Assembly (NCBI GenBank): GCA_020860205.1 | Contig: JAJBUU010000024.1 | Span: 18,646-82,645, forward strand | Direction of reading: 5' to 3' | Length of the DNA: 64,000 nucleotides | From: Oscillospiraceae bacterium | GTDB lineage: Bacteria; Bacillota; Clostridia; Oscillospirales; Oscillospiraceae | Part shown: positions 61,056 through 63,053 of the stretch, in pieces | Layout of the letters: each line of letters starts with the position of its first letter | Numbering within the stretch: the first letter of the stretch is position 1 | The notes under the pieces: generated by a model | Seen by the model: the letters and a program-made list of their open reading frames with translations, nothing else | Databases searched by the model: none | What the model was told of the DNA's origin: nothing | Position numbers and translations under genes: made by a program

Positions 61056-61748
61056 ATGTCAACTACAATTCCACAGTGTCGGATGTCCGCCGCAGAGGTT
61101 CTCAAGCGTGGAACGGTCATGATCGTTGGTATGTTTGCACTTGGGTTTGGCATTGCGCTCTGTGTACAGGCCGACTTGGGCATCTCGCCCATTTCCACCA
61201 TCGCTTATACCATGCACCAGATCGTGCCGTCCGTTTCGCTCGGCATCTCTGTATTTTTGCAAAACACCATGTTTTTTGTGCTGACCCTTGTGCTGCTGCG
61301 CCGCGATTTCCGGCTCTATCAGTGGCTCCTGCTCCCGTTTTCCCTGGTATTCGGGCTGATCGTGGATCTCAGCGAATACCTGCTGCGCAACCTGAATCCT
61401 TCCGCTTATGGGGTGCGCATCCTGCTTGTGCTGATCAGCTGCGTCGTCATTGGCTTTGGCTTCAGCCTGATCGTCACCTCCGGCGTATCTATGGACACCA
61501 ATACCGCTTTTGTGAACGCCGCAGTGCTGCGTACCGGCAAGCCTTATCACCGCCTGAAGCTGCTTACGGACGTTGCGCTCGTCGTCCTGGCCTCCTGTAT
61601 CGGGCTGATTTTCCTGCATCGCGTGGCGGGTGTGCGTGAAGGCACCGTGATTTCCGCGCTGCTCATTGGCCCAATCGCCGGTTTCTTTAACAGACGCTTC
61701 CGCTGGATGGAACGCCTGTTCCTTCCGCGCGGGGAAACGGGGACATAA
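61056..61748 (+). CDS. YczE/DUF6198-like polytopic membrane protein
   Basis: Start at MSTTIPQ (RBS GAGGAG). GMFALGFGIALCVQADLGISPIST pattern as in the YczE/YitT-related family. Confidence 0.6.
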   Translation: MSTTIPQCRMSAAEVLKRGTVMIVGMFALGFGIALCVQADLGISPISTIAYTMHQIVPSVSLGISVFLQNTMFFVLTLVLLRRDFRLYQWLLLPFSLVFGLIVDLSEYLLRNLNPSAYGVRILLVLISCVVIGFGFSLIVTSGVSMDTNTAFVNAAVLRTGKPYHRLKLLTDVALVVLASCIGLIFLHRVAGVREGTVISALLIGPIAGFFNRRFRWMERLFLPRGETGT

Positions 61749-61809
61749 GGCGCGGTTCCACTGTTATGCACGCGCCGTCAAGCGCGCTGTGCTTTGATTA
61801 TTGCGATAG

Positions 61810-61859
61810 AAAGCACGACAGGGTTCGCTCCCGCAGGAGCGGACCCTGTCGTGCTTTTC
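61810..61859 (+). terminator. Intrinsic terminator (15-bp stem)
   Basis: aaagcacgacagggt...accctgtcgtgcttt, then TC. The loop holds tcgctcccgcaggagcgg, the same ctcccgcaggagcg core as the 1394/46773 repeats. Confidence 0.7.
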
Positions 61860-61896
61860 ACAACTGTTGTTGTACAGGAAAATATGAATTTTCCGC

Positions 61897-61925
61897 TTGA
61901 CAGGAGAAGGGGAAGCGTGTATACT
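61897..61925 (+). promoter_or_regulatory. Sigma-A promoter for the arsR-HMA(-cadA) operon
   Basis: TTGACA (61897-61902), 17 nt spacer, TATACT (61920-61925). Followed by the inverted repeat TCAAATAAA (61927-61935) / TTTATTTGA (61958-61966), a possible operator. Confidence 0.55.
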
Positions 61926-61999
61926 GTCAAATAAAGGAGCATTTATATTTTTATCTGTTTATTTGAAGGAGGGCGATTTACATCGACAACGAGGAAACC

Positions 62000-62350
62000 G
62001 TGGTGGAGCTTTGCACCGTACAGCACCGCCATGAGGCGGCGGTCAGCGAAATTCTGGGCAGTATGCCGGACGAGCCGGAGCTTTCGGAGATGGCAGAGCT
62101 GTTCAAGACCTTCGGAGATTCCACCCGCATCCGTATCCTTTACATTTTGTCCCACAGTGAACTATGCGTCTGTGACATCGCCGCAGTGCTGAAGCTGAGC
62201 CAGCCGGCCATCAGCTATCAGCTCAAGGCGCTCAAGCAGGCGCGGCTTGTCAAAAGCCGCCGGGACGGAAAAACGGTCTATTATTCCCTTGCGGACGACC
62301 ATGTTGGAATCATCATCGGCATGGCAAAAGAACATTTGGAGGAGAGGTAA
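62000..62350 (+). CDS. ArsR/SmtB-family metalloregulator (CadC-like)
   Basis: GTG start. ELFKTFGDSTRIRILYIL..ELCVCDIAAVL..SQPAISYQLKALK wHTH with the alpha3 CVC metal site. Confidence 0.85.
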   Translation: MVELCTVQHRHEAAVSEILGSMPDEPELSEMAELFKTFGDSTRIRILYILSHSELCVCDIAAVLKLSQPAISYQLKALKQARLVKSRRDGKTVYYSLADDHVGIIIGMAKEHLEER

Positions 62351-62357
62351 GCATCCC

Positions 62358-62576
62358 ATGAAAAAGACTTATAAGATCGAAGTGGACTGCGCGAACTGCG
62401 CAAATCTGATGGAGGCTGAAACAAAAAAAATTTCCGGCGTGGCAAATGCAGTCGTCAACTTCATGACGCAGAAAATGACTGTGGAATTTGCGGATGGAGA
62501 GGACGAAAAGGCCGTGATGAAAAGCGTACGAAAAGCCTGCAAACGGGTGGAGCCGGACTGCGAAATAGAGCTTTGA
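62358..62576 (+). CDS. Stand-alone heavy-metal-associated (HMA) domain protein
   Basis: 72 aa. MKKTYKIEVDCANCANLME...VNFMTQKMTVEF, with a CxxC in a ferredoxin-like fold resembling the N-terminal domain of CadA-type ATPases. Confidence 0.85.
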   Translation: MKKTYKIEVDCANCANLMEAETKKISGVANAVVNFMTQKMTVEFADGEDEKAVMKSVRKACKRVEPDCEIEL

Positions 62577-62634
62577 TACGCACCGCCGCCCCGGACGTCA
62601 TGCAAACGGAAGGGGCGCGCGTTTTACGCAAATA

Positions 62635-62652
62635 TATAAATCATGATTTATA
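62635..62652. promoter_or_regulatory. 18-bp perfect palindrome (candidate operator or cassette boundary)
   Basis: TATAAATCATGATTTATA, 23 nt upstream of the AT-rich ORF start. Function unknown. Confidence 0.3.
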
Positions 62653-62674
62653 TTTGAAGAAGGAGAGTAGAGTT

Positions 62675-63019
62675 GTGAATAAAGTTTTAGATACAATAAA
62701 TAACCAAAAGAACAACCATCAAAAACAAAAGATTACAAAAAGAAAAGAAAAAATAGAAGCAGAATCTGAAATAATACGAAAAAGGAAAGAAAATATACTA
62801 AAAAAGCAGGAAGATATGCAAGCAGAAAGGATGAGATTGCTTGCGCTTGATGATAAAGAGTTACTGGTTGAATTGATTTTTTCAATAAGAGGAATGTATG
62901 CACAGATTAAGGAATTGGAAACTCAACAACAACTTTTGGATGAAAGACTGGAAAAAATGGAATTTGATATTGCTTTGTTAGAAGATGAGATTGCCACACT
63001 GAATCAAAAAAATAATTGA
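62675..63019 (+). CDS. Orphan AT-rich coiled-coil protein (114 aa), function unknown
   Basis: GTG start after AAGGAGAG. VNKVLDTINNQKNNHQKQKITKRKEKIEAESEIIRKRKEN...LLDERLEKMEFDIALLEDEIATLNQKNN has a basic N-terminus and heptad-like C-terminus. Composition is about a quarter to a third G+C against GC-rich flanks. Confidence 0.5.
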   Translation: MNKVLDTINNQKNNHQKQKITKRKEKIEAESEIIRKRKENILKKQEDMQAERMRLLALDDKELLVELIFSIRGMYAQIKELETQQQLLDERLEKMEFDIALLEDEIATLNQKNN

Positions 63020-63053
63020 ATTATAATGTTCTGCCAGTAAGGAGCTGTTTTGC

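Follow-up and report, generated by a model that had tools for sequence, protein, structure and literature searches.

The DNA analysed here is a stretch of 64,000 nucleotides from an Oscillospiraceae bacterium (contig JAJBUU010000024.1 of assembly GCA_020860205.1), which we refer to as the window. Near its right-hand end lies a metal-resistance operon in which the gene of an ArsR-type regulator is followed by genes for a small HMA protein and a P1B-type ATPase, and between the latter two sits an AT-rich tract with a single small open reading frame (ORF). We show that this ORF-bearing tract is a strain-specific foreign insertion relative to ten empty sites, present in a minority lineage of the species. 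The genes and features at the insertion site are as follows.

62000–62350, plus strand: gene for an ArsR/SmtB-family metalloregulator of 116 amino acids from a GTG start (Pfam HTH_5, expectation value (E) 2.2e-19; NCBIfam HTH_metalloreg, E 1.1e-29).
62358–62576, plus strand: gene for a stand-alone 72-amino-acid HMA protein with a CxxC motif, CANC (Pfam HMA, E 1.3e-8).
62626–62650, plus strand: native AT-rich part of the spacer, outside the insert, found in all ten empty-site loci.
62651–63038 at most, plus strand: strain-specific foreign insert of 388 bp, G+C 29.6%, which replaces about 11 bp for a net gain of 377 bp, as delimited by alignment to the empty sites.
62660–62665, plus strand: AAGGAG, read from the sequence as the ribosome-binding site (RBS) of the small ORF and as the left copy of the junction repeat, where the empty site has GAAGG(G)AGCTG.
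62675–63019, plus strand: gene for a 114-amino-acid two-helix coiled-coil protein (MCC8077394.1, hypothetical protein), with a GTG start and AAGGAG 9 nt upstream.
63039–63044, plus strand: AAGGAG, RBS of the ATPase gene and right copy of the junction repeat, where the native sequence restarts.
63054–64000, plus strand: N-terminal 315 codons of a P1B-type heavy-metal ATPase of the Cd/Zn family (Pfam E1-E2_ATPase, E 2.1e-44; NCBIfam ATPase-IB2_Cd, ZntA-type).

The tract stands out by its base composition. G+C is 29.5% across 62625–63045 and 29.3% across the ORF, against a mean of 58.3% in the window (standard deviation 5.4% in 300-bp windows), and the spacer at 62577–63053 contains the lowest-G+C DNA in the 64 kb, with no value below 37% anywhere else. 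An earlier note on this DNA had described an abrupt drop in G+C to 25–30%, a 114-amino-acid ORF with its own RBS, and neighbours consisting of a 72-amino-acid HMA/CxxC protein upstream and a GTG-started P1B ATPase downstream; the windowed G+C, the AAGGAG and GTG in front of the ORF together with the NCBI entry, and the Pfam and NCBIfam matches agree with it on all three. A fit of G+C with two change points placed the borders at 62622 and 63030. The cassette of about 420 bp proposed in the same note was right as to the foreign tract and too large as to its size, since 62626–62650 is native.

That the tract is an insertion follows from comparison within the species. Contigs encoding an identical HMA protein were taken as conspecific loci, and ten of these were retrieved (L100–L109; the prefix L denotes loci outside the window). 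All ten have a spacer of 100 bp between the HMA and ATPase genes, compared with 477 bp in the window, and lack the ORF, with flanks 98.1–99.1% identical on both sides; where the flanks suffice, the gene order is sigma factor-PRC-rpsB-tsf-DUF6198-arsR-HMA-ATPase-VanY. These empty sites bear out the earlier suspicion that the DNA is foreign and inserted. Apart from the window contig, the insert was found in one other locus, L001 (GCA_965299515.1, 98% identical), where it has the same junctions. The exact 114-amino-acid protein occurs in one contig among about 15 billion proteins, and the identical HMA protein is indexed in 45 collection blocks.

The window and L001 were aligned to eight of the ten empty sites, and the junction strings were compared for all ten. 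Unbroken identity with the empty sites stops at 62650 and restarts at 63039–63041, and the left junction lies somewhere in 62651–62665. The empty site reads ...CATGATTTAATTGAAAAAGAAGGGAGCTGTTTTGCGTG, or in one strain ...GAAAAAAGAAGGAGCTG, and the filled site reads ...CATGATTTA / TATTTGAAGAAGGAGAGTAGAGTTGTG-ORF-...CTGCCAGT / AAGGAGCTGTTTTGCGTG, where the slashes stand for the junctions; the junction strings of the filled allele are GAAGGAGAGTAGAGTTGTGAAT and CTGCCAGTAAGGAGCTG. The insertion hit the Shine-Dalgarno sequence of the ATPase gene, and the small ORF and the ATPase gene now each have AAGGAG about 9 nt before a GTG. With regard to a target-site duplication, AAGGAG stands on both sides of the insert, compared with one GAAGG(G)AG in the empty site, but the left flank at 62651–62665 also shows small indels relative to the empty allele, and AAGGAG is in itself an RBS. 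A junction model based on duplication of the 8-bp TAATTGAA, a string that the empty site shares with the stop-codon region of the ORF, was rejected as less parsimonious, the sequence past the right-hand copy departing from the empty site. Just upstream of the small ORF, positions 62634–62653 of the window form a perfect palindrome of 20 bp, ATATAAATCATGATTTATAT. The empty sites share its native 12-bp core, AAATCATGATTT, and the palindrome is longer in the window only, L001 having C at 62633 and the empty sites TAATTG on the right.

As judged from comparison with its relatives, the ORF genuinely encodes a protein, one of a family not described so far, and is not open merely by chance in AT-rich DNA, because it has full-length relatives, a conserved core, an N-terminus matching that of the family and a two-helix model. 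NCBI annotates exactly this product (MCC8077394.1) in an Oscillospiraceae metagenome-assembled genome. Searches of the curated libraries Pfam, NCBIfam, PHROGs and PADLOC returned sub-threshold coiled-coil noise only, and a word-indexed protein search with the single sequence found the broken L001 copy alone. An exhaustive HMMER (phmmer) search of 1.8 billion representatives, by comparison, gave 61 relatives, the best distant one with E 4e-16 over the full length; the earlier statement that no family is recognised therefore holds for curated libraries and fails overall. Many of these relatives are 105–125 amino acids long and align end to end at 30–40% identity (E 4e-16 to 1e-9 over residues 2–114), the family as a whole spanning about 80–125 amino acids; a profile search recovers 60 members, and a metagenome scan with a six-sequence alignment found three loci.

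In the family alignment, the N-terminal helix is basic and rich in charges, the C-terminal helix has a heptad pattern, and the core is conserved. The core motif is RLLxLDDKELMVELIFAxRGFY (in the alignment, E-K-x-R-L-L-x-L-D-D-K-E-L-M-V-E-L-I-F-A-x-R-G-F-Y); residues E51, L55, E66 and G73 are invariant in alignment A2, the window protein also keeps V65 and R72, and its GTG start agrees with the family N-terminus. AlphaFold2, run with the family alignment, predicts two long helices at residues 2–57 and 60–113 with a break at the LDDK turn (mean predicted local distance difference test score 90). Together with the coiled-coil matches, this model fits the Lys/Arg-rich N-terminus and heptad-like acidic C-terminus that had been pointed out before. 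Foldseek gave no matches for the model in the PDB, and a profile search of the PDB returned GCN4-type coiled coils only, against the C-terminal helix. The protein has no metal-binding motif, that is, no Cys or His pairs.

Twelve other independent contexts of family members were obtained, and in eight of them the gene is part of a Type I restriction-modification (R-M) operon, immediately precedes a DUF262 gene, or both. Seven are Type I R-M operons with HsdM, HsdS and HsdR, often accompanied by a tyrosine recombinase and extra hsdS copies; in four of these seven loci the small gene stands 13–40 bp upstream of a GmrSD_N/DUF262 gene, a fifth (L091) has fragmented DUF262 ORFs beyond a 276-bp gap, and two stand directly after a relaxase gene. 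A plasmid of Levilactobacillus brevis carries a family member (hhalign probability 98.6%) immediately before a gene with a DUF262 annotation. The most abundant member (213 contigs) belongs to a conjugative element, where it lies between RadC/HTH_17 and PC4/Toprim/relaxase/coupling-protein genes, one context has ArdC-like and primase genes adjoining, and two contexts are apparently chromosomal (radical SAM/AraC; RemA/gyrB). No relative was found beside metal genes in the contexts examined. The window copy is thus outside the usual neighbourhood of its family, since HMA and P1B ATPase genes adjoin it and no R-M or DUF262 gene does. Furthermore, the relatives have the G+C of their local surroundings, for example 46% in 46%, and no flanking DNA in common with the window. 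Because the relatives carry local G+C, so that the family is not intrinsically AT-rich, the 29% G+C of the window copy points to a low-G+C donor and not to a family property.

Within the Type I R-M operons, the small two-helix gene and the DUF262/GmrSD_N gene recur as a unit (L088, 6001–8213; L090, 6001–6635; L092, 592–2797; L096, 1466–2361; L110, 5001–7207), and the operons that hold it often encode a tyrosine recombinase along with additional copies of hsdS (phase-variable specificity). DUF4365 and NYN-domain genes lie on either side of the unit in L092. In L088, L090 and L092, AAGGAG begins 0–27 bases past the stop codon of the small gene and is separated by eight bases from the GTG that starts the next gene, and tgAAGGAGgcgcagacGTG follows the stop codon in these relatives. 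The DUF262 neighbours match the PADLOC models PDC-M55C, HEC-05 and NsnA. Restriction-linked ORFs between hsd genes are known, for example prrC or the rlo genes, and the family resembles such embedded defence genes in that its members sit in hsdM-hsdS-...-hsdR operons and/or upstream of a PADLOC-matching DUF262 gene; it differs in that PADLOC-DB 2.0 has no match for the window protein, with weak coiled-coil matches to LmuB and JetC in a few members, and in that the window copy has no R-M or DUF262 neighbour. The Menshen paper that includes NsnA does not describe a role for such a small protein (PMC12065111).

Selection on the operon was assessed gene by gene as the ratio of nonsynonymous to synonymous polymorphism (pN/pS), from one pairwise comparison between the window and L001, the two carriers found.

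arsR: nonsynonymous to synonymous substitutions 1:2, pN/pS 0.15.
HMA gene: 0:4, pN/pS 0.
ATPase gene: 4:6, pN/pS 0.23.
Small ORF: 12:2, pN/pS 1.34.

The small ORF differs from the flanking genes (Fisher p = 0.003), and the probability of a 12:2 split is 0.004 at an omega of 0.2, which corresponds to neighbour-like constraint, compared with 0.52 at an omega of 1, the neutral case. Substitution density is 4.4% in the cassette and about 1.3% in the flanks (p = 1.6e-4). Moreover, the small ORF of L001 carries indels of +2 and +1 that break it into ORFs of 76 and 57 amino acids.

Signs of dedicated mobility were looked for at several levels. Neither the insert, whose sole ORF is the coiled-coil protein, nor the nearby genes include a transposase, and the repeat finder gave no terminal inverted repeats, the ends AGTAGAG... 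and ...GCCAGT not being inverted repeats of each other. The earlier note was correct on these two points; it had also seen no obvious target duplication, and here it needs correcting in that a short direct repeat, AAGGAG at 62660–62665 and 63039–63044, does flank the insert. The 64-kb window has no second copy of the insert, BLASTN of the 477-bp stretch found no DNA match in plasmid and phage collections, and no relatives came from viral-contig scans with the protein and with the alignment or from TBLASTN of a family member against phages. No attC-like site is present, the stop codon being only 19 bp away from the right junction with no imperfect palindrome in that interval, and there is no integrase among the neighbouring genes. 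The insert shares with miniature transposable elements and integron cassettes a small size, an intergenic site and a short flanking direct repeat, but differs from them in having no terminal inverted repeats, attC or nearby integrase or transposase, and in being single copy in the window. It resembles in kind the phage "morons", extra genes between genes that are adjacent in related genomes, reportedly described by Hendrix, Juhala and colleagues in about 2000: it is a single extra gene between genes adjacent in close relatives, of deviant composition, apparently dispensable for the functions around it and without a mobility gene. Unlike a moron, it sits in a chromosomal metal-resistance operon (with rpsB, tsf, DUF6198 and VanY around it) and has no phage or viral relatives, no terminator was found in it, and its promoter is doubtful.

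The host operon has further features that bear on how the inserted gene and the ATPase gene might be expressed.

61897–61925, plus strand: predicted promoter-like site of the arsR-HMA-(insert)-ATPase operon, TTGACA-17 nt-TATACT (consensus scan, 11/12 matches).
62584–62625, plus strand: native G+C-rich hairpin with TTTT after it, in the spacer between the HMA and ATPase genes (folding energy of 62574–62660 as RNA, −25.3 kcal/mol; z −1.9).
63022–63027, plus strand: perfect TATAAT within the insert, 26 nt upstream of the ATPase start, with CTGAAT as a −35 element (3/6 matches); a speculative promoter element.

Upstream of the operon are rpsB, tsf and a membrane protein gene, and the locus is therefore chromosomal DNA. 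NCBI calls versions of 95–116 amino acids for the arsR product. The ATPase gene, which starts with GTG at 63054, at the first membrane region, continues beyond the window edge; its product is 630 amino acids long in L001 and L100–L109. Between the −10 element of the promoter and the arsR start lies a perfect 9-bp inverted repeat, TCAAATAAA ... TTTATTTGA (61927–61935 and 61958–61966), a candidate operator of the ArsR protein that recalls CadC/ArsR-type operators. The spacer hairpin, which is only weakly better folded than shuffled sequences and is identical in the empty-site strains, may act as an internal attenuator setting the ratio of HMA to ATPase expression; a similar hairpin with a T-run is present in the HMA-ATPase spacers of two distant relatives, L002 and L009. 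The promoter scan left TATAAT at 63022–63027 uncalled owing to its weak −35 element and called no promoter or terminator in the insert, and a search of 61500–63400 with Rfam 15 covariance models gave no match up to E = 1. Elsewhere, the second most AT-rich stretch of the window (47017–48126, G+C down to 38%) encodes a secreted leucine-rich-repeat protein whose C-terminal tail is dockerin-like, and LRR_5/dockerin genes resembling it lie downstream of the operon in L100, L102 and L109.

The region upstream of arsR varies within the species. Homology of the window to L001, L107 and L109 breaks off at 61879, just left of the arsR promoter, and an alternative upstream sequence replaces the DUF6198 gene there (L001, 1–746; L107, 1–720; L109, 1–143; mutually 98–99% identical). 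Both variants occur with and without the insert, and the existence of all four combinations implies recombination within the species or a second rearrangement. Identity between the window and L001 of 98% within the operon, compared with apparent values of about 80% outside it, had suggested a recent exchange of the entire operon. This was rejected because the 80% matches are paralogues elsewhere in the window; it is also countered by the downstream synteny (VanY, a hexapeptide-repeat gene) that L001 shares with the conspecific loci.

Beyond the species, a scan of one genome per species gave 80 loci in Clostridia with an ATPase 73–80% identical to that of the window, 79 of them with usable upstream sequence. 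In every one of the 79, a full-length 72-amino-acid HMA gene ends in its own stop codon and is directly followed by an ATPase gene that has its own start, the gap between the two ranging from −1 to 440 bp (median 82 bp), and neither the small ORF nor a relative of it was found at any of the 80 loci. The host operon is thus an ordinary member of the two-gene Firmicute metal modules that consist of an HMA "cation transporter" and a P1B-2 ATPase without an N-terminal metal-binding domain, from which it differs by the extra spacer gene in the window and L001 only. Long AT-rich HMA-ATPase spacers of about 30% G+C are present in L004 (3736–4000, 265 bp) and L016 (3561–4000, 440 bp); they were considered as comparable fillers and set aside, as both are ordinary intergenic sequence in genomes of low G+C and contain nothing related to the ORF. 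In L002–L081 an arsR-like gene, about 40% identical, is mostly on the opposite strand upstream of the HMA gene, compared with the co-directional gene of the window, and the regulator arrangement of the HMA/ATPase module varies between lineages.

Together, these observations support the idea that the insert is a tolerated passenger without its partner, derived from a mobile defence island, gained by short-homology recombination and not part of the metal pump, to which we assign a probability of about 0.68. By analogy with the distant relatives, the donor segment would have consisted of a Shine-Dalgarno sequence, the small gene and the Shine-Dalgarno sequence of the next gene, and would have shared AAGGAG at both ends with the target, GAAGG(G)AG followed by nine bases and GTG. 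Illegitimate recombination or template switching on this 6-bp microhomology could have brought it in with no dedicated mobility enzyme, and the product expected, target...AAGGAG-ORF-...-AAGGAG...target, is the arrangement observed. The small gene would then probably be co-transcribed with the metal operon from the ArsR-controlled promoter at 61897–61925, and in its new place it would have no DUF262 partner and presumably no role in metal efflux. It would have evolved at a neutral rate since the two carriers diverged, being already broken in one of them, as a moron-like gene in a chromosomal operon.

Several points weigh against this interpretation. The selection test comprises only 14 substitutions from one pair, and the window copy is full length and keeps the residues conserved in the family, so that it may still function, with most of the damage perhaps confined to L001. 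The L001 indels lie in A- or T-rich runs of a metagenome assembly and are possible assembly errors; one of them is accompanied by a substitution, and the L001 flanks are gap-free. The presence of the insert on both upstream backgrounds speaks for within-species recombination or for persistence over a time sufficient for spread, of which a purely deleterious passenger might be incapable. Finally, the closest relative outside the locus is 38% identical, and the proposed donor is modelled on distant relatives, and the small indels at 62651–62665 relative to the empty allele leave a single simple microhomology event unproven.

Some of these points would be accommodated if the small protein functioned alone in its carrier, for instance in defence or anti-defence brought from a mobile element, with L001 showing lineage-specific loss or an assembly artefact. 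The window ORF is indeed intact, has a good RBS, matches the family along its whole length and retains E51, L55, V65, E66, R72 and G73; several changes specific to L001 fall on conserved sites (in the EKxRLL core R52N, and in the C-terminal helix a change of E to G), so that the damage may belong to the L001 branch only, and some family members also have no DUF262 neighbour. We nevertheless consider such a function unlikely, given that the insert is present in two assemblies and missing from the ten other conspecific loci, that the single comparison gives no purifying signal, that the usual neighbour of the family is missing and that no member has a known function. Less probable still is that the insert is kept for an effect in cis, through ArsR-independent or otherwise altered expression of the pump. 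The change of the ribosome-binding region of the ATPase gene from GAAGGGAG to TAAGGAG, the perfect TATAAT 26 nt upstream of its start, the identity of both TATAAT (63022–63027) and AAGGAG (63039–63044) in the two carriers while the ORF decays, and the occurrence on two upstream backgrounds, which is compatible with recombinational spread, are all in its favour; yet the −35 element matches at three of six positions and the site is not called by the promoter scan, TATAAT-like hexamers arise by chance in AT-rich DNA, and carriers are rare. A self-propagating mini-cassette that targets Shine-Dalgarno sequences and is mobilised in trans by an enzyme not yet known would account for the precise insertion of a single gene bounded by a 6-bp direct repeat that is the RBS, and for the scatter of family members over many unrelated gene neighbourhoods. 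We find it very improbable, since the window has one copy, with no plasmid or phage DNA match, no relative in viral contigs and no inverted repeats or attC-like structure, and since the relatives share no flanking DNA with the window and have local G+C as resident genes do.

Two readings had been put forward by the earlier note. A role of the small protein as a new accessory part of the metal-efflux operon would suit a gene that lies within the operon, on the same strand, with its own RBS and presumably on the ArsR-controlled transcript. It is hardly tenable for a gene that is absent from all ten conspecific empty sites and from the 80 other loci of the ATPase family, that has a pN/pS of 1.34 and is frameshifted in L001, and whose product has no Cys/His pairs and relatives that are never beside metal genes. 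The other reading, in which the insertion split a CadA-type gene with HMA and ATPase fused, is favoured by an HMA protein that resembles, from partial NCBIfam matches, the metal-binding domains at the N-termini of ZntA and CadA, and by an ATPase that has no such domain. It is refuted, and we give it practically no weight, because the HMA and ATPase genes are separate irrespective of the insert, the former with its own stop and the latter with its own start in all 79 relatives and all ten empty sites, an outcome that the note itself had named as contrary to it; the insert also lies wholly inside the 100-bp hairpin-bearing spacer.

For metal resistance the insertion has little bearing, as the operon is an ordinary ArsR-HMA-P1B ATPase module in which the extra gene is a rare and apparently dispensable polymorphism. 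The event itself is ordinary in kind, a strain-specific gain of one foreign gene, and is unusually cleanly documented: filled and empty alleles at 98–99% identity provide a clean population-level case of a foreign gene placed at an RBS without mobility machinery, and the insert documents one route by which orphan genes enter operons. As to the family, it is possible, although we hold it with less than even confidence, that these small two-helix proteins are an unrecognised partner of DUF262 (ParB-like) proteins, for example an adaptor or regulator, in the Type I R-M operons of mobile elements of gut Firmicutes, and that the window offers a rare snapshot of defence-island genes scattering into housekeeping operons via a shared Shine-Dalgarno hexamer. 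A small protein family that Pfam, NCBIfam, PHROGs and PADLOC all lack and that stands repeatedly beside DUF262 in Type I R-M operons is a candidate defence-island component, and its link with DUF262 is the lead most worth following.

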